Assembly (NCBI GenBank): GCA_039931685.1
Contig: JBDTRK010000003.1
Coordinates: 5,990-69,989, forward strand
DNA length: 64,000 nucleotides
Direction: 5' to 3'
DNA from: Betaproteobacteria bacterium
GTDB taxonomy: Bacteria; Pseudomonadota; Gammaproteobacteria; Burkholderiales; JACQAP01
Shown: positions 470 to 46,713 of the stretch, one piece after another
Position numbering within the stretch: the stretch's first letter is position 1
Layout: every line of letters starts with the position of its first letter
Notes under the pieces: generated by a model
Told to the model about the DNA's origin: nothing
Database searches by the model: none
What the model saw: only the letters and a program-made list of their open reading frames with translations
Made by a program: the position numbers and the translations under genes

Positions 470-1066
470 ATGAAGGAATGGCTGTACGACTGGGGCGGAT
501 TGAATGTTGCGTTGTTCCATGCGATCAACGCCAATCATGCGCCCTGGCTCGATGAGTTGATGCTTGCCCTGACCTGGGCCGGTGACCACGATCGTTTCGC
601 ACCCTACCTTGCTGCCCTGGCTTGCGCGGCGTGGTGGCAGTTCTCGCGTGACCCCGCCGGCCCCAAGACCCGTGCATGGGTTCTCGCGCTGGCGACTTTC
701 TCGATCGGCTACGTGCTGGACGGCATCCTGATCATGACCCTCAAAGCCGCCTTCGATTTTCCGCGACCGCCTGCCCTTTTTCCAGCAGGTAGTCTGATTA
801 TCGTCGGCGTCCCGGAGTTTCATCACAGCCTGCCCAGCGGACACGCATCGTTCGCCATGCTGGTGGGCGCAGTGCTCTGGCCGTGCGCGTGCAATGCGGC
901 TACCCGCGTTGCGCTTGCGGCCTTTGTAGTCGGAGTTTGCCTGTCGCGGCCTTATCTGGGCCTGCATTTCCCGGCCGACGTGGTATTTGGCAGCCTGAAG
1001 TCGCTGCTGCTCGTCGTTGCCATCCGCGCCGTGCTGACCATGCGGCTTGCGACGGCGCGTTACTGA
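470..1066 (+). CDS. PAP2-family phosphatase (membrane)
   Basis: 198 aa and multi-TM. It carries PAP2 signature residues (KAAFDFPRP ... PSGHAS ... SRPYLGLHFPADV). Confidence 0.8.
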   Translation: MKEWLYDWGGLNVALFHAINANHAPWLDELMLALTWAGDHDRFAPYLAALACAAWWQFSRDPAGPKTRAWVLALATFSIGYVLDGILIMTLKAAFDFPRPPALFPAGSLIIVGVPEFHHSLPSGHASFAMLVGAVLWPCACNAATRVALAAFVVGVCLSRPYLGLHFPADVVFGSLKSLLLVVAIRAVLTMRLATARY

Positions 1067-1089
1067 CGCGTTCGGGCTATCATGGCAGC

Positions 1090-1575
1090 ATGCTGCCCAC
1101 GGGAACGCTCATGGTTCAGATCGTCGCTGTAACACTGCTGGTTCTCTCCAATGTCGCCGCTGCATGGGCAGCCGAGCAACAGCTCGAAGCCAGCGAATCG
1201 GGCATTACCGCCCAGGCGCGCCGCACCTACTCGCTGGATGCCAAGCCGGTCATCAATCGTCTTGATTTCGATTTTGCGGCCGGCGAATCGAGCGGCTGGC
1301 TGAACGTTGACGGGGATTTTCATGTTAATGGCTGGGTGCAGCATCGCAGCCTGCTGTGCGCCACTTACCGCACGGCTCTGCGATTCGGCATCGGCGCGCC
1401 GGGTTGCCTGAACGTCGAATGGATGTCCGATCCGATTTACGTGACGTCCCAATACCAATGCAACGGTGCACGCGTGCAACACGACGGCGGCGACAGTGCG
1501 CCGGAGATCGGCGCGCAAATCGGCAAGATCACCTGTGCAGAGCGCGTCATCCGCTGCAGCGGGTCATGCAAGTAA
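1090..1575 (+). CDS. hypothetical secreted Cys-rich protein
   Basis: ATG at 1090 gives a signal-peptide-like N-terminus (LMVQIVAVTLLVLSNVAAAWA). The mature part has six Cys. I recognise no family. The start is approximate (alternative 1111). Confidence 0.45.
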   Translation: MLPTGTLMVQIVAVTLLVLSNVAAAWAAEQQLEASESGITAQARRTYSLDAKPVINRLDFDFAAGESSGWLNVDGDFHVNGWVQHRSLLCATYRTALRFGIGAPGCLNVEWMSDPIYVTSQYQCNGARVQHDGGDSAPEIGAQIGKITCAERVIRCSGSCK

Positions 1576-2360
1576 CGCCCGTCGTCCTGCGCAATTACGC
1601 GATTGCCATTGCGCTGTGGGCCGCCCTGCAGCCGCGCCTCGCCGGCGCGGAATTGACGCTCAACGGCGGCGTAGATTACCTGCGATGGACCGAGAGCAGC
1701 GCTCCCGAAGTCCGCGAGTCCGGGCCGCTTTATACGCTGGGCATTGCTTACACGCAGGACCGGGATGCCGGCGTATTGTTCGCTTATCGCGGAAAAATGT
1801 GGGGCGGCCAGGTCAATTATGCAGGTGCCACGCTGTTCGGCGGCACGCCGGTCAGCAGCACCACGAGTTACATCGGCGCCGACAACGAAGTGCAGGCACG
1901 CTGGCGCAAACCCGGCAAAGCCGGCGGCAATCTCGATGGCGTTCTGGGCGCCGGACTCAGCACCTGGCGCAGGCAGCTGTCGAGCGTGCAGAAGGAAGAC
2001 TACGCCGTCGGTTATCTGCGCCTAGGCATAGAGTCCGGCACGGACGCGGCGGGACAGTGGACGGTGTCCATGGGTCTGAAGTACCCGCTATGGACTTATG
2101 AGAACGCGCATTTCGACCAGATCGGCTTCGACTCGAACCCGATCCTGCGTCCCGGAAGAGAGGTTTCGCCGTACGGCAGCCTCGGCTATCGCTTTACGCC
2201 GACGCTGCAGATGGTGGGCTACTACGACGGCTTGCGTTTCGGCCGGTCTGCCGCGGTCCAGACCAATGAAATCGCCAACGGGCTGGGCCCGACGACCCTG
2301 GTGCAGCCCGCGACCTCCATGTCCGTATTCGGTCTCAGGTTCGAGTACCGCCTGCGCTGA
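1566..2360 (+). CDS. putative outer-membrane beta-barrel protein
   Basis: Signal peptide (AIALWAALQPRLAGA), alternating Gly/aromatic-rich beta-strand pattern, and a C-terminal VFGLRFEYRLR. It overlaps the previous ORF by 10 nt. Confidence 0.5.
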   Translation: MQVTPVVLRNYAIAIALWAALQPRLAGAELTLNGGVDYLRWTESSAPEVRESGPLYTLGIAYTQDRDAGVLFAYRGKMWGGQVNYAGATLFGGTPVSSTTSYIGADNEVQARWRKPGKAGGNLDGVLGAGLSTWRRQLSSVQKEDYAVGYLRLGIESGTDAAGQWTVSMGLKYPLWTYENAHFDQIGFDSNPILRPGREVSPYGSLGYRFTPTLQMVGYYDGLRFGRSAAVQTNEIANGLGPTTLVQPATSMSVFGLRFEYRLR

Positions 2361-3427: not shown

Positions 3428-4414
3428 ATGGAATACGTGAATCTGGGCAGCACCGGACTGAAAGTCTCGCGCATCTGCCTGGGCTGCATGAGTTACGGTT
3501 CGCCGAAATGGCGCGACTGGGTGCTCGACTACGACGCATCAAAACCCTTTTTCAGGCGCGCGCTGGATCTGGGCATCAATTTCTTCGATACCGCCGACAT
3601 GTACTCCGACGGCGAAAGCGAGGTAGTCACCGGGCGGGCGCTGAAGGAGCTGGGCGTGGCGCGCGAGCAGGTGGTCGTAGCGACCAAGGTTCACAACCCC
3701 ATGGGCAAGGATCCCAACCAGCGCGGCCTGTCGCGAAAGCACATCATGCACGCGATCGACAACAGTCTGCGCCGCCTGGGTCTCGATTACGTGGACCTCT
3801 ACCAGATACATCGCTTCGATCGCCACACCCCGATCGAGGAAACGCTGGAGGCATTGACCGACGTGGTGAAAGCCGGGAAGGCGTTATACATCGGGGCCTC
3901 GTCGATGTACGCCTACCAGTTCGCAAACATGCTGCACGCCGCGGACAGGTACGGTTACTCGCGCTTCGTCACCATGCAAAACCACTACAACCTGGTCTAC
4001 CGGGAGGAAGAGCGTGAAATGAATCCGCTATGCCGCGAGGAAGGCATCGGGCTGATTCCCTGGAGCCCCCTGGCGCGCGGCTTCCTGGCCGGCAATCGCA
4101 GCAAGGAAAGTTGGGGCGCGACCACGCGCGCCAAGAGCGACGACTTCGCGCACAACATGTATTACCAGGATTCGGATTTCGAAGTTGTCGGTCGGGTCAC
4201 GCAAATCGCGGCGGCGCGCGGCGTGCCGAATGCCCAGGTGGCGATCGCCTGGTTGTTGCAGCAGCCCGGGGTGACGGCGCCGATCGTGGGTGCGACGAAA
4301 ATGCAGCACCTCGAAGATGCGGTCGCTGCGCTTTCGGTCAAGCTTACCGCGGAAGAACTGAAAACACTCGCCGAACCCTATAAACCGCATCCGGTGCTCG
4401 GCAACCTGAGCTAG
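3428..4414 (+). CDS. aldo/keto reductase
   Basis: MEYVNLGSTGLKVSRICLGCMSYG ... FFDTADMYSDGESE is the AKR signature. AAGGAG lies upstream of the ATG at 3428. Confidence 0.9.
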   Translation: MEYVNLGSTGLKVSRICLGCMSYGSPKWRDWVLDYDASKPFFRRALDLGINFFDTADMYSDGESEVVTGRALKELGVAREQVVVATKVHNPMGKDPNQRGLSRKHIMHAIDNSLRRLGLDYVDLYQIHRFDRHTPIEETLEALTDVVKAGKALYIGASSMYAYQFANMLHAADRYGYSRFVTMQNHYNLVYREEEREMNPLCREEGIGLIPWSPLARGFLAGNRSKESWGATTRAKSDDFAHNMYYQDSDFEVVGRVTQIAAARGVPNAQVAIAWLLQQPGVTAPIVGATKMQHLEDAVAALSVKLTAEELKTLAEPYKPHPVLGNLS

Positions 4415-5292: not shown

Positions 5293-6138
5293 ATGAGACA
5301 TAGCGGAAGTTTACCAATGCAGGAAGGTCACGGCTTGTACGAACCTGCTGCGCCCGACGCGCTGCTCTGTGTCGGTGGCGGCAAGACGCTTTATGTAGGC
5401 TCACTGGAACAGGTGGGCTGGCATCTGCATGGCACCCCGGTGTTCATCGCGGGACTCGCCGGAGATTTTCGCTTGCGCCTGCCAGGCGGCGACTGGACGA
5501 CCTGCCGTTGCGCCGTCATCCCGGCCGGTGTCAGGCACGCACTGGATCTGGGCGGCGAGCCGCTCGCAGCATTCTATCCCGAACCGAATATCGCAGGCTT
5601 GTCAGCATTGACCCGGCTCGGCGCAAACTGGCATGAACGCGAGAAGATCCTGCTGGCGCAGCATGCCGAACTGCGCTCCTTCCGCGAACTCCACGAAAAT
5701 TCCGCCAGCGTGCACTGGAGCGGTGAAGCGCTCGATGACCTGCTTGGCTTCGCACTGCGCCGCGATGGCGGCAATCCGCTCGATCCACGGATCGCACAGG
5801 TGGTCGCATGGCTGGACGAACGTCCCGACGACCTGACTGGCGCCTGGCGGATTGCCCGCACGCAGGGCTTATCCTCCTCGCGCTTTCTGCACTTGTTCAC
5901 CGAGCAAATCGGCGTGCCCTTCCGCCGTTACCGGATCTGGAACAGGATACGCGCCGCCACGAAAGTGGCGCTGTCGGGAAACAATTTCACGGACGCAGCG
6001 ATGACGGCGGGATTTGCCGATTCCGCACATTTCACAAACAGTTTCCGGGATACCTTCGGCGTGACGCCGTCTTACGTCTTCCGCAAGATCGGCCGCTCCG
6101 GCACGATGCCCGGACTCCGGACCGCCACGCGGACATGA
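5293..6138 (+). CDS. AraC-family transcriptional regulator
   Basis: C-terminal AraC HTH (SSSRFLHLFTEQIGVPFRRYRIWNRI ... GFADSAHFTNSFRDTFGVTPS). The start is uncertain (5293 or 5317). Confidence 0.8.
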   Translation: MRHSGSLPMQEGHGLYEPAAPDALLCVGGGKTLYVGSLEQVGWHLHGTPVFIAGLAGDFRLRLPGGDWTTCRCAVIPAGVRHALDLGGEPLAAFYPEPNIAGLSALTRLGANWHEREKILLAQHAELRSFRELHENSASVHWSGEALDDLLGFALRRDGGNPLDPRIAQVVAWLDERPDDLTGAWRIARTQGLSSSRFLHLFTEQIGVPFRRYRIWNRIRAATKVALSGNNFTDAAMTAGFADSAHFTNSFRDTFGVTPSYVFRKIGRSGTMPGLRTATRT

Positions 6139-7838: not shown

Positions 7839-8324
7839 GTGACGACGTCCCGGAGCATCGCCAATACCATCGGCTTCGCGTTCGTCGTCGCGGGACTTCC
7901 CCCGCTCGCAATCGCCTTCGGCTGGTTGATCGTCCCCGCGGAGGATTTCCCCATCGCGCTGTGGACAATGGGTTGCGGCGGTGCCGCTCTCGAATTCGCC
8001 GGACTCGCGCTGCTGACACCGGAATCGCTTTCCCGGGCGCGCGGACTGCTCGCCGCGCTGTCAATCACGGCGCTGGCGACATTATTCGACTGGATTGCAT
8101 TCGGCCACCTCCAGGGCGGTTGGCGCTTCATGCTCGACACGCTGATGAACTCGCTGGCGCTGAAGCAAAATGCCGCACACAACGTGGTGGTGCTGTTCGC
8201 GGTGCTGCTGACCCTGCTGGCATTGTTCGGCTGGACGCAATGGTTGCGCAATATCACTGAAAAGAATGGAACTCCACTGAAAAGCCCGGGTCGTAAAGGG
8301 AAGGCCAAAGAAACCGTCGAATGA
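7839..8324 (+). CDS. hypothetical integral membrane protein
   Basis: 161 aa with about four hydrophobic helices. GTG start 10 nt after the M14 stop. No family recognised. Confidence 0.5.
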   Translation: MTTSRSIANTIGFAFVVAGLPPLAIAFGWLIVPAEDFPIALWTMGCGGAALEFAGLALLTPESLSRARGLLAALSITALATLFDWIAFGHLQGGWRFMLDTLMNSLALKQNAAHNVVVLFAVLLTLLALFGWTQWLRNITEKNGTPLKSPGRKGKAKETVE

Positions 8325-8350
8325 ACATGGCATCAAAGGAGAAGCAGTCG

Positions 8351-8680
8351 ATGAAATCGAGAGCAGCACTAGTGCGTAGCATTGCGGCCGGCGCGATCGT
8401 AGCGATGTCAGCACTCGCAATGACCGCAGTCCACGCCGCGGATACGGACAAGAAATACACCAAGGAAGAATTCAAATCCGACGTGAAAGCAGCTGGCAAA
8501 GGCCTCAAGGATGCTGCCGTGGATGTCGGCCATCAGGTCGGCGCCGGCACCAAGAAGGCGTACAAAGCCGACAAGACCAAAGTCAAAAAGGATGTGAAGG
8601 ACGGCAAGCCCGGTGATGGCAGCCTGGCGAAGAAGAACGAGGGCACGCCGGCAGTAACCGAAGGCAGAAAGCCGAACTAG
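8351..8680 (+). CDS. small secreted Lys-rich protein
   Basis: AAGGAG lies 9 nt upstream of the ATG at 8351. Signal peptide MKSRAALVRSIAAGAIVAMSALAMTAVHA, followed by a Lys/Asp/Gly-rich mature part. An alternative start at 8321 overlaps the previous stop. Confidence 0.5.
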   Translation: MKSRAALVRSIAAGAIVAMSALAMTAVHAADTDKKYTKEEFKSDVKAAGKGLKDAAVDVGHQVGAGTKKAYKADKTKVKKDVKDGKPGDGSLAKKNEGTPAVTEGRKPN

Positions 8681-8720
8681 CCTCCGGTTTCAGCAAGCTT
8701 CGCCGGAATACGTATCATGG

Positions 8721-12174: not shown

Positions 12175-12539
12175 CCCCGGCAGGCCCCCGCCCACCGTTC
12201 AGAACGGACGTCCCATCGGCAGCCGGACGTACAGACCCAGGCCGGCCGTAAGCGCGCCTTCCGGTTCGCCGACGCTCGATCGATCGACGTAAACGTGCGC
12301 ATTGATCCGCTCGAAGATCAGGCCATCACGCTGCAGGGCCGCCGGTCCGGGGTTGCGCCCTGTTCGTGGATGCGCGCCGCTAAAGCCAGCTGGATCCAGC
12401 GGTATGGGCTAATTTCCGGCTCGATGGGCAGCGCCGTGCGGGATTCCATGTTAATCCGTCGCCCGGGACAGCGCATCCAGTCCGGCTTTCGCGATGGCTC
12501 GAAGGTCCAGGGCGTCTACGCTGGGGGCACGTGCGCCGC

Positions 12540-12791
12540 TCAGCTCAGGAAGCCGACGGACCGCGGCAGCCACAACGCGATTCGCGGAAATGCAGGCATC
12601 AGCAGTAACCCGATCAGCCGCGGCACGACGAACGCAATGATGCCGCGATAGATATGTCCCATGCCGATTGAGGATGGCACGGTGCCTTTCATGTAGAACA
12701 GCGTAAAGCCGAATGGCGGTGTCAGGAGTGAGGTCTGCAGATTCACCGACATCATGATCACGAGCATGATCGACGGCGGATTCAGCGCCGT
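12540..12791 (-). pseudogene. C-terminal remnant of a TRAP-type (DctM-like) permease
   Basis: ALNPPSIMLVIMMSVNLQTSLLTPPFGFTLFYMKG...IYRGIIAFVVPRLIGLLLMPAFPRIALWLP matches only the last ~80 residues of DctM-like permeases. It starts immediately after the amidohydrolase stop codon and has no N-terminal part. Confidence 0.55.
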
Positions 12792-26669: not shown

Positions 26670-27437
26670 CTACGCCCACCCGGCATCGACGACGAAATTC
26701 TGCGACGTAATCATCTTCGCGTCGTCAGACGACAGGAACAGGACCATATTGGCCAAATCTTCGGGTTGCAGCCGGCCCTTCAGGCATTGCTGCTGGTCCA
26801 TTTGTTTTTCCCCTTCCGCGGTCAGCCAGAGTTTCTTCTGGCGTTCGGTCATGACCCAGCCTGGGGAAACCGTGTTGGCGCGGATGTTGAATGGACCAAG
26901 GTCACGCGCGAGCCCGCGCGTGAGGCCATGGATAGCGGCCTTGCTGGTGGTATAGGCAGGCATGCCGCCGGTCGCGGTCATCCAGGAAATCGACCCGAAA
27001 TTGATGATCGAACCGCCGCCCAGGCTCCTCATCTGTTCGACGACGGCCTGCGCGGCGAAAAACTGGTGGCGCAGGTTGACCGCGACGCGCTCGTCCCAGT
27101 ACTCGACGGTTACGCTTTCGATCGGATGGCGATCGTCACGGGCCGCATTGTTGACCAGGACGCCAATATCTCCGAATGCCGACTGCACCGACTTGATCGC
27201 GGCGCGCAAGTTGTCGATATCGCGCACATCGCAGTGCACGAAGCGCGGTGCCGAATTCGCGCGCTCGAGCTTGTTCAACAGCGCATTGCTGGCCACCTCG
27301 TCAATGTCGACAAAGCCCACGCGTGCGCCCTGGCGCACAAAAGCCTCGACAATCGCAGCGCCGATTCCGGAGCCGCCACCGCTGACGAATACGACCTTGT
27401 CCTTGAGACTGGGATAGTTGGCGAAGCGATCTGGCAT
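26670..27437 (-). CDS. SDR-family oxidoreductase (2-keto-3-deoxy-L-fuconate dehydrogenase-like)
   Basis: VFVSGGGSGIGAA, NNAA, and YTTSKAA catalytic YxxxK. Confidence 0.85.
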   Translation of the reverse strand: MPDRFANYPSLKDKVVFVSGGGSGIGAAIVEAFVRQGARVGFVDIDEVASNALLNKLERANSAPRFVHCDVRDIDNLRAAIKSVQSAFGDIGVLVNNAARDDRHPIESVTVEYWDERVAVNLRHQFFAAQAVVEQMRSLGGGSIINFGSISWMTATGGMPAYTTSKAAIHGLTRGLARDLGPFNIRANTVSPGWVMTERQKKLWLTAEGEKQMDQQQCLKGRLQPEDLANMVLFLSSDDAKMITSQNFVVDAGWA

Positions 27438-27516
27438 GGCTGTTTCCTGGCAATTGAAAATGCTGACCATCGCCAGTATAGCCAATCGACCGCGATGGTT
27501 CGTCAACCTGCCAGAT

Positions 27517-27996
27517 TCACTGCACCAAGATCAACCAGGCAATGATGTTGCCCTTTTCCCGCATTGTGCACTGGCGTCCAATCACCATCTCGCATTTCGG
27601 TTTGAGGAATTCCTCGACATGATCGAAGTTGGTCAGGCGCTTCGGATTGGCCGAAGGCGCCAGCGGCCCGATCTTGCGCAGCTTGGCGCGTTTCGGATGC
27701 GGATTCTCGGAATCATTGATGACATGGCACTGGCGGCACAGCACCCTGGATTTGTGCGCGAAAATTTCTTCGCGCGGGTCGGCGAGGTGACAGGAAACGC
27801 AGTTGATGGCGCCAACGACCGGCAGTGCGCGCTTCTACAGGTACAGTTCATGGCAGTGCCCGGCGGAGAAACCGGTAAAGGTCGGGTTTTCCTGTTTCGC
27901 CAGTTCGGCGTAACGATCGAGAATCTGGTCCGGCGTGTCGGTTAGCAAAGGCGCCGGGCATAAGGATAGCGCGCGGGCTGCCGCGATCCGCTTCAT
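27517..27996 (-). pseudogene. DUF1924-like c-type cytochrome interrupted by an in-frame TAG
   Basis: MKRIAAARALSL... signal-like N-terminus, then ...FSAGHCHELYL, then TAG (27835-27837). The same frame continues KRALPVVGAINCVSCH...CRQCH...IGPLAPSANPKRLT...GRQCTMREKGNIIAWL. There are two CxxCH motifs (27787-27801 and 27724-27738). Confidence 0.55.
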
Positions 27997-28090
27997 TGCC
28001 CCTCCTCCGAGAGAGTACCCAATCCTTCTCGTCCAGCGATTATGCTGCCGGACCGGGACAGTGGCTAGTTCCAGGAGCACACGCCCGTCT

Positions 28091-28573
28091 TCAGTTCCGA
28101 AACCTGCGCCGCATGTCTGGATTCATTTTCTCCCAGACGATGGCGTCCAGCGAGAGCTTGCCCGGACCGTGACAAAGCACGACCAGAATCAGGGTGCCCC
28201 AGAAAACATGCTGCGCCAGCGCCGGTTCGGCCATGTTCAGAACATGCCAGTACGACACCACGGCCATGACGTTGACGAAAGTCAGGCCAAATGCCGCGAA
28301 GCGCGTCGCCAGACCCAGTGTCAGCAATACTGGCAGAACGAGTTCGCCGAGGGTGCCCATGACTGCCGCGAGCTCCGGCGGAATCACCGGCACGCGATAC
28401 TCTTCCTGGAACAGTGTCAGCGTTGTGTCCCAATCGCGGATCTTGGTCAATCCGGACAGGAAAAACACTTTCGAGACATAAAGCCGGATGCCAAGATCGA
28501 GAACGTTTCCCAGCAAGTCGAGGCTTTTGCGGCTGGTGTCGAGTAGTGGCACGAGTCTTTCGATGAGGGACAC
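28091..28573 (-). CDS. DoxX-family membrane protein
   Basis: GIRLYVSKVFFLSGLTKI ... ELVLPVLLTLGLATRFAAFGL is DoxX-like. A GTG start lies 1 nt after the upstream stop, with GGAGGA upstream. Confidence 0.8.
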   Translation of the reverse strand: MSLIERLVPLLDTSRKSLDLLGNVLDLGIRLYVSKVFFLSGLTKIRDWDTTLTLFQEEYRVPVIPPELAAVMGTLGELVLPVLLTLGLATRFAAFGLTFVNVMAVVSYWHVLNMAEPALAQHVFWGTLILVVLCHGPGKLSLDAIVWEKMNPDMRRRFRN

Positions 28574-28574
28574 G

Positions 28575-29357
28575 TCATCCTCCGTTGAGTTTGAAATTGA
28601 CAATGACCGAGGATGCGACCCACTCGTTCAAAGCGCGGCCGAGGTCGAACGAGGCATCGCAAGCCTGCGCTGCCACCAATGCCGCTTCCAGCGTGCGGCC
28701 CTCGCGCACAGCGGCCAGGAATGCCGCGTCGGCGTCACTGGCCTGCGCGACCTCAACCCGGAAGTGTGGCCGATAGACCAGCGCGTGCGAAGCGCCCGCG
28801 GAAAAATCCACGTCGAATTCACCCTCGGCCGCGTCCTGGTGCACCTGCCAGATGCGTGCAAGCGGATATTCGGAATGCAGGATGCGGCACGCCGGATGCA
28901 ATTGCGGACGCAACTGAAGTTGCGCCTCGGGCGTCAGCCCTGCCAGGCTCGCCGCGTCAAAGGAGGCGGGATCCGCCGCGTAATGGGCGCGATGCACTTG
29001 CCATTCCAGGCGCGCGATATCGGCGAGATAGGGCAGTTGCGCCGCTGGCTGAAAATCGGCGATGAACGCGGCGAAGGATTCGCCATACTCGTTGAGGTCG
29101 CCGTCTTGTGACGGGAAGCGCAAGCGATACTGTCGCGCCAGGCCGGAGAAGAATTCCACCCCCACGATTTTTGCGATGACCGGGTAAGCGGCTTCAATGG
29201 CCCTGGCGGCATTGGCCAGCGTATTGCCGCGGTAAATGCGCAATCGCCTGCCTGCCTGCTGCGAACCGCCAACGAACATCCCGAGCGCTTCGGACCCGGC
29301 ATCATTTGCATCCAGTGCGACGCCGAAGCGCGCCTGGAGTGTCTCGAGCTCACGCAT
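28575..29357 (-). CDS. DUF2063-family protein (MNIO partner, BufC-like)
   Basis: LQARFGVAL...RLRIYRGN...AYPVI...VGVEFF...LARQY...[10 protein letters not shown] is the DUF2063 pattern. The start overlaps the DUF692 stop (ATGCGTGA). Confidence 0.8.
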
Positions 29358-30195
29358 ATTCGGCCTGCAAGACACGCGCCGCCAGGGCCGCTTCTTCGAG
29401 CAACACGTCAAGCGCCGGAATCGATGTGTCCCATTCGATCAGCGTCGGCACCGGACCAAAGCGCCGACACGCCGCCTCATAGAGGCTCCACACCGGCGCC
29501 GCGACACGGGAACCGTGATCGTCGATCAGCACATCACCATCGGCGCTATGCCCGGCAAGATGGATCTCGGCGACCGCCTGCACGGGTATTTCGAGTAACG
29601 CCTCGACCGGATCGAACCCGTGATTCACGGCATTGACGTACAGATTGTTGACGTCGAGCAGGATGCCGCAACCGCTGCGCCTGGCGAGCTCGGCAAGAAA
29701 AGCGAATTCGGACAACTCCGAGGCGCGGAATTGCAGGTAGCTCGACACGTTCTCGATGAGCACGCGCCTGCGCAGCGTCTCCTGCACCTGCGTGACATGC
29801 GAGACGACCTGGTCCAACGCCTCACGGGTAAACGGCAAGGGCAGCAGATCGTTGAAATGGCGCGGCCCGATCGCGGCCCAGCACAAGTGCTCGGATACCA
29901 GCGCCGGCTCAATACGCTCGACCAGGCGTTTGAGTTTCGCAAGATGCCGCTGGCGCACCCCATCGGCGGAACCTAGCGACAACGCCACCCCATGCAGGCT
30001 GACTGGATAACGGGAACGAACTTGCTCCAGCACATGGAGGTCGTATCCGCCGGCACCGAAATAATTTTCGCTGTGGACTTCCAGCCAGCCGGCCCTCGGC
30101 TGAGAATCGAGGAGCTCGCGGTAGTGAGGAGCCCGCAGCCCGATGCCGACACCTCGCACGGCGACTTGACCTTCGGAAGAGCTAAGCAGACTCAT
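29350..30195 (-). CDS. DUF692-family multinuclear non-haem iron oxidase (MNIO; MbnB/BufB-like)
   Basis: GIGLRAPHY...WLEVHSENY...[12 protein letters not shown]...SEHLCW...IENVSSY...DVNNLYVN...EIHLAGH...LIDDHG...LIEWD is the canonical DUF692 motif series. Confidence 0.9.
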
Positions 30196-30261
30196 GCCGG
30201 AATAACACCGACGCGAGCGGTACAAACTGCCCGCGCCGATGAAGGGAGGAGACTTGGTGAA

Positions 30262-30519
30262 TTACTTCTTGTACGTTAATTTGCCGCCGAGCTTGTCGCA
30301 AGTTCCCTTGGCGACATAATTCCATTCTGCCGGCGCATTGTCGGTACTCGCCTGTCCCGCGCAGGAATGTGTTCCTGTGGCATTGGCGCAGTCGTTCTGG
30401 CCGGCCTTGGCGATGCCGTAACATTTTTCCTTGCTTTTTTCCGCTGCCAGGCCGGATCCGGCCGAGGCCAGCGCGATGAGTCCGGCCAGCGCCGTACTGA
30501 CAATGAGTCTCTGGTCCAT
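30262..30519 (-). CDS. DUF2282-family signal-peptide-bearing RiPP precursor (bufferin/BufA-like)
   Basis: 85 aa. AAGGAGG lies 4 nt upstream. Sec signal peptide, then [26 protein letters not shown]...[10 protein letters not shown] with four Cys. Confidence 0.85.
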
Positions 30520-30749
30520 ACTGCCTCCTTGGTAGATGAGAGAAAACGGTCCCGATTCCGAGTGCTGCGCGCTTGTGTCGATGCCGCATTCGAAACCTTA
30601 CAGCACAAGCGTTGTTGCCGCGCCCTGATGTGTCGACTAATACGCACAACGCGCCGGACCGGATTCAGGGAAATCGCTCCGGTATGTCCGGCATCAAAAT
30701 TCGTCGTTGGTTCCGCGAAAGCCTGGCCGACTGCCCGTCGTTCACCGGC

Positions 30750-31382
30750 TCACTGCGGCCACTTCTTCTGCAACTCGGCCACCTGCTCGGGCGTCAGGAT
30801 CTTTAGCTTGTTGCCTCGCAGCAGCAGGTACAGCCGCGCGGTTTCTTCCAGTTCCTCGGTTGCATAGACCGCACTCTCGAGATCCTTTCCGGCCACGATG
30901 GGACCGTGGTTGGCAAGCAGGATTGCGTGGTGCTTGCCAGCGACCTCCTTCACGGCATTGGCGAGCGTCATGTCGCCGGGCGCGTAATAGGGCAAGAGCA
31001 CCAGATTGCCGATTTTCATGACGTAGTAAGCGGTGATCGGCGGAATCGGCTGCTGCGGATCGACGTCGGCAAGACAGGAAACGGCGACCGAATGGGTCGA
31101 ATGCAGATGCACAATGGCGCCGGCGGCGGGCCGTTCTGCATACACCGAAAGGTGCAGGAAGGATTCCTTGGTCTGCTTGTCACCGGATAGCAGGTTGCCT
31201 TTTGCATCCACCTTCGACAGGGTTGCCGGGTCAAGCCGGCCGAGGCAGGAGTTGGTCGGCGTCATCAGCCAGCCATCGTCGGTGCGCACGCTGATGTTTC
31301 CGGAACTACCCACTGTCAGCCCGCGGTCGAACATCGACTTGCCGAGCATGCAGATTTCTTCCCTGAGTTTAGATTCGTTCAT
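30750..31382 (-). CDS. otnC: class II aldolase/adducin-family protein (3-oxo-tetronate 4-phosphate decarboxylase-like)
   Basis: GSSGNISVR...HLHS...LANHG motifs, paired with a DUF1537-type kinase gene. Confidence 0.7.
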   Translation of the reverse strand: MNESKLREEICMLGKSMFDRGLTVGSSGNISVRTDDGWLMTPTNSCLGRLDPATLSKVDAKGNLLSGDKQTKESFLHLSVYAERPAAGAIVHLHSTHSVAVSCLADVDPQQPIPPITAYYVMKIGNLVLLPYYAPGDMTLANAVKEVAGKHHAILLANHGPIVAGKDLESAVYATEELEETARLYLLLRGNKLKILTPEQVAELQKKWPQ

Positions 31383-31407
31383 GCTTTTTTATCTGTCCAA
31401 AAAACCA

Positions 31408-31616
31408 ATTGAACCACGGAGGACACGGATACCCTCGCGATAGCGTGGAGTACCCTTTTAGGACACGGAGAATCAAAAGGATTGTCCGGACGGTTGGCGC
31501 GGACAGGGAGATTCACAAAACTGAGACTCTCTCATTCCCGTGGACATTGCCGGTTAGTGATCTTCGTATCGAACGTCTTGCCTCCGTGTCCACCGTGTCC
31601 TCCGTGGTTCACCTAA
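31408..31616. repeat. MITE-like palindromic element, copy D (inverted, left arm interrupted)
   Basis: Arms attgaaccacggaggacacgg and ccgtgtccaccgtgtcctccgtggttcacctaat. It fills the otnK-otnC spacer. Confidence 0.7.
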
Positions 31617-41989: not shown

Positions 41990-42402
41990 TCAGATGTCCA
42001 CCGCGTCGCATACGGACTTCAAGTAGCCGCCCGCGATGACGGCGGCGACTACGGCACCGTCGCGGCAAAACTCCGCCAGCCTGCAGTCGCGCCCGCTCGG
42101 ATCTGCCTTCCACGGTGCGTGGCCGGGCAGAAAACACGGGTTGCAGCTTTGCAACCAATGGCACGTGGCGGACGCCTGGTTCCGTTGCATGGTGGCAACC
42201 CGCGTCGCCAGCGCCGCACGGCGGCCTCGACGTCAAAATCGCTCGATTCCTTGTGAAAGGGAAAAGTGAATGGCATCGGATCGTCAGCCGGGATCGATGC
42301 GTTGCCGACGCTCCGATGGGCGCCGATATCCGGGATTGCGGCGCGTGAGCTCAGGCCATGCTCCCGCGTCGCCAGCACGGCGATGACGCCGTCGCTGAAC
42401 AT
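41990..42402 (-). pseudogene. unknown-function gene, apparently frameshifted (or two short overlapping ORFs)
   Basis: AGGAGG lies 6 nt upstream of the ATG at 42402. High third-position GC holds in one frame to about 42210, then switches to a second frame that ends at 41990. Confidence 0.35.
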
Positions 42403-42674
42403 GCAACCCTCCTGCCGCAATCGCGCAATGCGTGATCGCCCCCGCCGCAACGTTTACGTCAATGCGGTCGCCCTACCCCATGTAAATCATCTGCCGGCGC
42501 GGAAGTGAGTGCTTCGACTTTGGAAATCAACGGCCTTCCGGCAGCGGCAAGGAGAAGCGCTCGCCTTAGAAGACTTACCCGGCGGGAAGCGTGAAACTAC
42601 CTGACGAAGGCATGAAGGGTCGAAGCACCGGCAGGCTTGTGTCGCCTGTATTCTTTTCCCTTTCACGCCTTCAC

Positions 42675-46636: not shown

Positions 46637-46713
<77 letters not shown>

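Follow-up and report, generated by a model that had tools for sequence, protein, structure and literature searches.

Among sugar genes in metagenomic DNA lies a short minus-strand operon, and the question that it raises is whether it encodes a working bufferin, that is, a small copper-binding protein made when a multinuclear non-haem iron oxidase (MNIO) modifies the cysteines of a precursor. The operon occupies 28091-30519 of a 64,000-nucleotide (nt) stretch of contig JBDTRK010000003.1; the window, as we use the word below, is the whole of that stretch. A preliminary description, made from the letters of the DNA, had read the locus as a bufferin-type MNIO operon for a ribosomally synthesised and post-translationally modified peptide, with DUF2282, DUF692, DUF2063 and DoxX genes, and had proposed as its central point that the product is a periplasmic, Cys-derived metallophore. 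Family matches, cysteines, iron ligands and the fold of the partner protein all agree with the first of these claims, and the reading as a whole, with such a metallophore as the expected product, is supported by every test that could be run. As judged from sequence, the locus is very probably a functional Buf1-type bufferin cluster, bufABCD, and its host an uncultured Burkholderiales-like betaproteobacterium.

Gene content and selection

A published survey defines the core of such clusters as precursor, MNIO, DUF2063 protein and DoxX protein (PMC12452194). We call bufABCD a bufferin cluster because it matches this core exactly, and every defining feature of a Buf1 cluster that can be tested on sequence is found in it. 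The four genes are:

30262-30519, minus strand: bufA, Buf1 (DUF2282) bufferin precursor, 85 amino acids (aa), ATG to TAA, Pfam DUF2282
29350-30195, minus strand: bufB, MNIO (DUF692) bufferin maturase, 281 aa, MNIO_BufB and MbnB_TglH_ChrH profiles
28575-29357, minus strand: bufC, DUF2063 partner protein, 260 aa, Pfam DUF2063
28091-28573, minus strand: bufD, DoxX-family membrane protein, 160 aa, Pfam DoxX (62.7 bits)

The operon proper ends with these genes, and about 30667 is its limit when the promoter region is included. The genes are tightly coupled: the ATG of bufC overlaps the stop of bufB by 8 nt, ATGCGTGA, and the GTG start of bufD (doxX) follows the stop of bufC after 1 nt, both as first described. 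The profile search proposed at that stage gave DUF2282, DUF692-type, DUF2063 and DoxX matches for the window proteins, in Pfam DUF2282, the NCBIfam equivalog MNIO_BufB, Pfam DUF2063 and Pfam DoxX, all above the curated cutoffs. The closest relatives keep this order of genes, as do many of 80 more distant loci (related loci are labelled L001 and so on). Gene calling based on GC content at third codon positions (GC3) was dropped as evidence, as it chose antisense open reading frames (ORFs) inside bufC and bufD.

All four genes are under purifying selection. Against four relatives the ratio of nonsynonymous to synonymous substitution rates (dN/dS) ranges from 0.09 to 0.23, similar to the flanking housekeeping genes; the values are 0.09-0.16 for bufA, 0.10-0.16 for bufB, 0.20-0.23 for bufC and 0.15-0.18 for bufD.

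The precursor and its cysteines

The 85-codon gene bufA has the coordinates first given for it, and its product matches Pfam DUF2282 with 87 bits (cutoff 22.4). More than 7,900 homologues were found at E<=1e-5, in a search that was saturated. The near-perfect ribosome-binding site that had been reported is present:

30524-30530, minus strand: Shine-Dalgarno sequence AAGGAGG of bufA, read in the sequence, 4 nt 5' of the ATG

In most of the close relatives that could be aligned upstream of bufA, CAAGGAG is kept at this place.

Residues 4-25 of BufA are hydrophobic and are followed by ...GSGLA/AEK. A Sec signal peptide is thus predicted at about residues 1-25, in line with the Sec-type signal first proposed, and would leave a core of 60 aa, AEKSKEK...TYKK, whose calculated monoisotopic mass is 6250.96 Da. 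The four cysteines stand at positions 33, 44, 53 and 74 of the precursor, which are positions 8, 19, 28 and 49 of the core. Their number is as first stated, and their spacing, which had been given as x11/x8/x21, is in fact C-x10-C-x8-C-x20-C. Among 76 BufA homologues from related loci each of the four cysteines, like G35 and the motifs KAG, NDC and GTC, is kept in at least 90%.

The maturase and its partners

BufB is assigned to the bufferin maturases by the NCBIfam equivalog MNIO_BufB ("MNIO family bufferin maturase"), which it matches with 385.8 bits against a cutoff of 310. It aligns to Pfam MbnB_TglH_ChrH from position 1 to position 262 of that profile, whose length is 263, with 365 bits, and it fails the NCBIfam models for HvfB, ApyH, MbnB and ChrH. 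Its closest match among the GTDB species representatives is 82% identical and comes from a Betaproteobacteria metagenome-assembled genome (MAG). The ATG that we use is the start chosen by gene callers on identical contigs; other in-frame starts exist.

Nine iron-ligand positions have been defined for MbnB (PMC9060507), and all nine are retained in BufB, which bears out the full motif series that had been claimed for the DUF692 gene. In an alignment to solved MNIOs, H68, H103, E148, D181 and N184 of BufB correspond to the MbnB ligands H54, H90, E133, D163 and N166, and H212, D225, H227 and E254 correspond to H192, D208, H210 and E239. For H68 and H54 the correspondence is read from the reported alignment ranges only.

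The Pfam DUF2063 match of BufC (66.5 bits) covers residues 6-98, which is the N-terminal part of the protein. An AlphaFold2 model of BufC has a mean predicted local distance difference test score (pLDDT) of 88.2 and a predicted template modelling score of 0.82. The best Foldseek matches of this model are TglI (8hi7_A and 8hci_A, E 1.7e-5), the partner of the MNIO TglH, and NGO1945 (3DEE, E 2.6e-3), a DUF2063 partner protein from Neisseria. Judged by the model, BufC has the fold of known MNIO partners. It is structure comparison alone that ties BufC to TglI and 3DEE, because neither a phmmer sequence search nor a 37-sequence profile search with BufC found a match in the PDB.

On identical contigs, too, gene callers give the last gene, bufD, a length of 160 aa. 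No terminator was found 3' of it, and the spacer between doxX and the next gene, a DUF1924 gene, folds no better than shuffled sequences (z -0.18).

A proposed route to the mature protein

The founding member of the Buf1 family is the buf1 operon of Caulobacter vibrioides (bufA1B1C1D1, CCNA_03363-03366; PMC11626156). The core cysteines of Caulobacter BufA1 are at 12, 23, 31 and 52, that is x10/x7/x20; the two central ones, CysII and CysIII, become 5-thiooxazoles (-4.03 Da each), CysI and CysIV form a disulfide, and the product is 10 Da lighter than the core (PMC11626156). It binds Cu(I) and Cu(II), and its formation requires BufB and BufC, DoxX being dispensable (PMC11626156).

By homology to this system we infer the following route for the window operon. 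BufA would be synthesised as the 85-residue precursor. In the cytoplasm the iron enzyme BufB, which its DUF2063 partner BufC would hold to the substrate, would use O2 to oxidise the two central cysteines (Cys19 and Cys28 of the core) to 5-thiooxazole rings, each ring representing a four-electron oxidation and a loss of 4 Da. The product would then be exported by Sec, the signal peptide being cut after ...GLA, and Cys8 and Cys49 of the core would form a disulfide. The folded protein of 60 residues may then bind excess copper in the periplasm through its two thiooxazoles. BufD is expected to act as a membrane accessory protein that is dispensable for the modification.

A hairpin between bufA and bufB

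How much precursor is made for each enzyme may depend on the spacer that separates their genes. The 66 nt between bufA and bufB fold into a GC-rich hairpin of 13 pairs followed by a T-rich tract:

30206-30241, minus strand: conserved hairpin with T-rich tail in the bufA-bufB spacer, fold z-score -2.3, with covariation

Compensatory changes are seen at 4 of 14 predicted pairs among seven related sequences. Further, strong hairpins (z<-2) occur at the same spacer in 18 of 49 loci, some of them with canonical T-runs. The region 27000-31500 has no Rfam match at E<=1. In other peptide-precursor operons, partial termination after the precursor gene offers an analogy. The hairpin is likely to be a partial terminator or attenuator that raises the precursor transcript over that of the enzymes, and in the route proposed above it would probably let the precursor transcript exceed the enzyme transcript.

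Promoter-like motifs and regulation

The 230 nt upstream of bufA contain two conserved blocks, both of which resemble promoters for sigma factors of the extracytoplasmic function (ECF) type:

30640-30667, minus strand: M1, TGAATCC-N16-CGTAT, promoter-like by its ECF18-type resemblance, starting 148 nt before the bufA ATG
30577-30601, minus strand: M2, GTAAGG-N15-CGAC, promoter-like by its SigF/ECF16 resemblance, starting 82 nt before the bufA ATG

For ECF18 the published consensus reads xGCATCC at -35 and xxCGTATx at -10 (PMC13492112), and the sigma-F site that drives buf1 in Caulobacter is GTAACC-N16-CGAA (PMC3511200). The M1 core, CTGnATCC...CGTAT, is invariant when the window is aligned with L001-L004 and L081. 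Strict M1 is present in 13 of 76 regions upstream of bufA, against a mean of 0.04 in shuffled sequences; these 13 are all but two of the 15 copies that the 1.01 Mb of loci contain. M2 is present in 21 of the 76 regions (shuffle mean 0.21), mostly 80-100 nt before the ATG. The two motifs stand in tandem in the window, L002, L081/L082, L073 and L078; in other loci M1 or M2 is found alone, about 82 nt before the ATG.

M2 also occurs elsewhere in these loci. In six of them a copy (GTAAGG-N15/16-CGAC) lies between bufC and doxX (L016 7594, L018 7594, L047 7609, L067 5508, L073 7714 and L078 7632), which suggests an internal doxX promoter there; in the window, by contrast, translation of doxX is coupled to that of bufC. 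Other copies are located 5' of a radical-SAM/DUF3641 gene in L018 (2127, minus strand; gene at 1048-2166, minus strand) and 5' of a divergent second bufA in L026 (5545, minus strand). These occurrences hint at a small regulon sharing the motif.

No Sigma70_r2, Sigma70_r4, NrsF or metal-sensor domain was found in about 50 window ORFs scanned, the large ones among them lying within the first 57.7 kb, and the small number of flanking ORFs that were scanned in L009, L017, L018 and L025 contained no sigma or anti-sigma gene. The lack of an adjacent ECF/anti-sigma or metal-sensor gene had been noted before, and to that extent the observation stands; it had also been taken as exceptional, which it is not, as sigma/anti-sigma genes accompany some Buf1 clusters outside the core (PMC12452194) and none were found in the flanking ORFs scanned in the four relatives. 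Judging from the motifs, expression of bufABCD probably depends on one or two promoters of ECF type whose sigma factors are encoded elsewhere.

Points against the assignment and the metal

Several observations weigh against a functional copper bufferin cluster. None of the NCBIfam models matches BufA, and the HvfC and HvfX models remain below cutoff for BufC and BufD. The AlphaFold2 model of BufA, built with 30 homologues, has a pLDDT of 57 and is too poor for checking disulfide geometry or loop exposure. Compared with Caulobacter BufA1, the loop between CysII and CysIII has one residue more, and it contains a His that is conserved. Modification, metal specificity and induction in the window organism are extrapolated from homologues. 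On the side of regulation, the domain scan of the window gave no candidate regulator, M1 and M2 are resemblances to consensus sequences only, and in Cupriavidus it could not be demonstrated that the ECF16 sigma factor RpoQ is linked to expression of the homologous gig operon (PMC13492112).

The same kind of modified protein could have a main role other than copper buffering, dealing with gold, cadmium, chromium or mercury, or with oxidative or sulfur stress through DoxX. As far as PMC3511200 and the reference list of PMC11626156 indicate, it is not copper alone but also gold, cadmium and chromate to which homologous operons respond; MerC-bufferin fusions and the presence of DoxX point to other stresses (PMC12452194), and the x8 loop with its His differs from the x7 loop of Caulobacter. 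However, all characterised members of the class bind copper, and the window ORFs scanned show no sign of a different metal system. We consider a main role outside copper buffering unlikely, and retain a copper bufferin as the preferred reading.

The DUF1924 gene is not part of the operon

In the preliminary description the operon carried an extra haem-protein gene, a cytochrome-c-like gene starting 10 nt after doxX. The ORF at that place (GTG at 28080) runs into an in-frame TAG, and the gene at this place is a pseudogene with an upstream element of its own:

27517-27996, minus strand: DUF1924 cytochrome-like pseudogene with two CxxCH motifs, Pfam DUF1924, in-frame TAG at 27835-27837
28031-28053, minus strand: imperfect palindrome around CATAAT, conserved element GGCCGCATAATGGCC, upstream of DUF1924 and outside the buf operon

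By homology the start of this gene is the ATG at 27994-27996, 94 nt after the doxX stop, and 159 residues would be encoded. The Pfam DUF1924 match (75.9 bits) is confined to the region downstream of the TAG, and both CxxCH motifs are located there as well, in 27517-27834. Intact homologues of 159 residues, up to 80% identical, exist in metagenomes; all of those aligned read LYLQKR where the window reads LYL*KR, and the codon in L002 is CAG. The window TAG is a C-to-T nonsense change, since the homologues have Gln or CAG at that codon. It is also present in L085, an independent metagenome contig of 16.6 kb that is 100% identical over 3400 nt. Further, the window copy departs from near-invariant residues (G48C and N134K), and its dN/dS against the copy in L087, both of them damaged, is 0.49.

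A promoter scan upstream of DUF1924 gave TAGCCA-17-CATAAT, ending at 28039. The surrounding element, GGCCGCATAATGGCC, which is conserved in L081, L083 and L002 both with and without a preceding buf operon (L081 about 5990-6010, L083 about 3800-3815, L002 8150-8172), lies upstream of DUF1924 at about 45-55 nt from its start; the window palindrome is degraded in comparison with the perfect 8-bp arms in L002. It marks DUF1924 as a separate transcription unit, and could be the -10 element of a promoter inside an operator-like inverted repeat.

Could the haem protein nevertheless be a working fifth member of the operon, expressed by read-through of the TAG or hidden by an assembly error, and serve the maturase or DoxX as a partner in electron transfer? 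It lies directly downstream on the same strand, its frame continues past the TAG with both CxxCH motifs intact, an intact copy follows bufABCD in L081/L082, and rare fusions of Buf1 with cytochrome c exist (PMC12452194). However, the TAG recurs in a second assembly at a codon that is CAG in homologues, and the near-invariant positions are altered. The relatives have lesions of their own: a frameshift in L002, a 60-codon deletion in L087, a 27-codon stump in L001 and absence from L003 and L004. In L083/L084 an intact gene stands between otnC and the gene for a short-chain dehydrogenase/reductase (SDR) without any buf operon, and none of the other 76 buf-operon loci has the gene. A fifth operon member is thus very improbable. 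Because DUF1924 has its own conserved element, occurs without buf genes and has been damaged independently in relatives, it is not a member of the operon; it belongs to the resident sugar locus, forms a transcription unit of its own and is being lost. In annotation the downstream "cytochrome" should be labelled a pseudogene and left out of the cluster.

The gene (in the window, 27520-27834 on the minus strand) belongs to a DUF1924 subgroup (P0001-P0030) in which an insertion of about 22 residues carries the second CxxCH (CRQCHVIND...). About 30 such proteins with two CxxCH motifs were found, and the canonical DUF1924 proteins P0033-P0035 are without the insertion. From their motifs, the intact members of the subgroup are probably two-haem variants.

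Gain and loss between the sugar genes

Upstream the operon is flanked by genes for 3-oxo-tetronate kinase (otnK) and decarboxylase (otnC), both above the NCBIfam equivalog cutoffs. Downstream is an SDR dehydrogenase resembling xylose dehydrogenase, at a score below the cutoff of that model, and further on are an aldose epimerase, an amidohydrolase, an aldo-keto reductase and an ABC sugar transporter. The flanks are those first described, with fucose-like and tetronate genes, but the context cannot be called unusual, as it had been: the order otnK-otnC-bufABCD-SDR recurs in L001, L002, L004, L081 and L085, and the shorter contigs L003, L082 and L087 have the same order as far as they reach. The variants at this site are:

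L081 and L082: otnK-otnC-bufABCD-Mpo1-like gene-DUF1924 (intact)-SDR; L082 starts at otnC
L083 and L084: otnK-otnC-DUF1924 (intact)-SDR, without buf genes; L084 starts at otnC
Window and L085: bufABCD, then DUF1924 with the nonsense codon
L002: bufABCD, then DUF1924 with a +1 frameshift (8218-8696)
L087, the closest genome (BufC 94% identical): bufABCD, then DUF1924 (4028-4330) with an in-frame deletion of 60 codons that includes the second haem motif
L001: bufABCD, then the first 27 codons of DUF1924 only (8349-8429)
L003 and L004: bufABCD, DUF1924 absent

In this comparison of sequences the buf genes act like a cassette that is inserted or deleted as a whole, at a fixed site that lies between otnC and the promoter region of DUF1924. 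There is no anomaly in GC or skew across 27-31 kb. Flanking repeats of the cassette are not convincing, inverted matches of 15-18 nt that bracket it being at chance level (26 such pairs), and no tRNA gene is close to the operon, the sole one in the window (tRNA-Pro, 46637-46713) being about 16 kb away. The presence of buf genes coincides with repeated loss of DUF1924, a hint that the two may conflict in function or in expression.

The Mpo1-like gene (PF06127, 101 residues) begins 30 nt after doxX and precedes DUF1924 (L081 5664-5969, L082 3451-3756). It was found in this one relative, L081/L082; neither the window nor any other examined locus has it. Because the buf operon, the Mpo1-like gene and DUF1924 are variously present or absent at a single site, these loci form a natural experiment, if a small one, on how genes are gained and lost.

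With a pseudogene next to it, no linked regulator found and the Mpo1-like gene of L081/L082 missing, the buf operon might itself be a decaying, non-functional remnant like its neighbour. This is contradicted by its four intact frames, by the conservation of catalytic residues and cysteines, by the dN/dS values and by the promoter-like motifs, Shine-Dalgarno sequence and hairpin, which are all conserved; we give such decay next to no credence, and continue to read the operon as functional.

A broader scenario can be offered tentatively, and we hold it to be possible but rather doubtful: the bufferin operons of this group of betaproteobacteria would be controlled in trans by two different ECF sigma factors (ECF18-like at M1, ECF16/SigF-like at M2), a conserved attenuator after bufA would keep the precursor in high excess over the enzyme, and buf and DUF1924 would be in conflict.

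Other loci and other genes of the window

A second arrangement of buf genes was seen, in which bufB-bufC come first and a BufA-like gene and doxX lie downstream, about 2 kb away in some loci (L020, L022, L038, L042, L043, L044, L048, L054, L059, L061, L069 and L077). In most of these a distant SDR gene follows, 26-32% identical to the window SDR, and in L024 a similarly distant SDR gene comes after bufABCD. Five MAG records with buf operons of betaproteobacterial type (L012, L018, L023, L027 and L066; BufB 64-69% identical) are titled Streptomyces, Bordetella parapertussis, Enterobacteriaceae or Phycisphaerae; their bin taxonomy or contig assignment is probably wrong.

Elsewhere in the window five ORFs have coding-like GC3 and no Pfam match at E<=1e-5: 7839-8324 (plus strand, 161 aa), 8321-8680 (plus, 119 aa), 12295-12651 (plus, 118 aa), 42049-42450 (minus, 133 aa) and 1356-2360 (plus, 334 aa).

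Comparison with known systems

The variants of this family had been called largely unexplored, a view that the literature of 2024-2026 has overtaken: it covers chemistry, enzymology and genomic surveys, and also uses the name captophorins for the class. The window locus is one more example in a very large family characterised since 2024, and it settles no open question. Modestly new are M1 and M2 as a pair of promoter-like motifs, the hairpin that resembles an attenuator, and the way in which genes were gained and lost around the decaying DUF1924 gene. M1, M2 and the hairpin provide testable handles on the control of bufferin operons without a linked sigma factor, a matter that the work on Cupriavidus left unresolved.

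The methanobactin system MbnABC shares with the window the enzyme superfamily, the set of iron ligands and the conversion of Cys into a copper-binding heterocycle. In contrast to a small protein exported by Sec, methanobactin is a peptide for the acquisition of copper; it carries oxazolone-thioamide groups and has a dedicated export route. A methanobactin cluster was ruled out: the MbnB model gives 45.1 bits (cutoff 325), MbnA and MbnC are absent, the precursor is DUF2282 and the partner DUF2063.

The oxazolin (HvfABC), gonophorin and fontiphorin clusters, which make the captophorins with EGKCG repeats, combine an MNIO with a partner of DUF2063 type, often have DoxX, and turn Cys into 5-thiooxazole in a copper-binding product (PMC11252979, PMC13097082). 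5-Thiooxazoles are reported for the other MNIO products of this class examined in PMC13097082. The precursors of these clusters have EGKCG repeats, unlike the folded DUF2282 domain, and BufA has no such repeat. An HvfB/oxazolin (EGKCG) cluster was ruled out on this ground and on the scores for HvfB (242 bits, cutoff 360), HvfC (51, cutoff 142) and HvfX (55, cutoff 80).

The gig operon found in Cupriavidus metallidurans (gigPABT) and the GIG operon of Legionella pneumophila are homologous operons of Pseudomonadota that respond to copper and gold. In Cupriavidus the genes for the ECF16 sigma factor RpoQ and the anti-sigma factor RsqA are adjacent and divergent, whereas no such pair was found here.

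The best counterpart is buf1 of Caulobacter. It differs in having a sigF-nrsF pair beside the operon, none being found here, and the window has the longer central loop with its conserved His and two different ECF-like motifs in tandem, in a betaproteobacterium known only from metagenomes. Both have the same four families in the same order with DoxX last, a Sec signal peptide and an MNIO of the BufB equivalog subfamily, and the spacing of cysteines is nearly the same (x10/x7/x20 there, x10/x8/x20 in the window). The locus thus adds a further environmental member to the Buf1 bufferin family already described.

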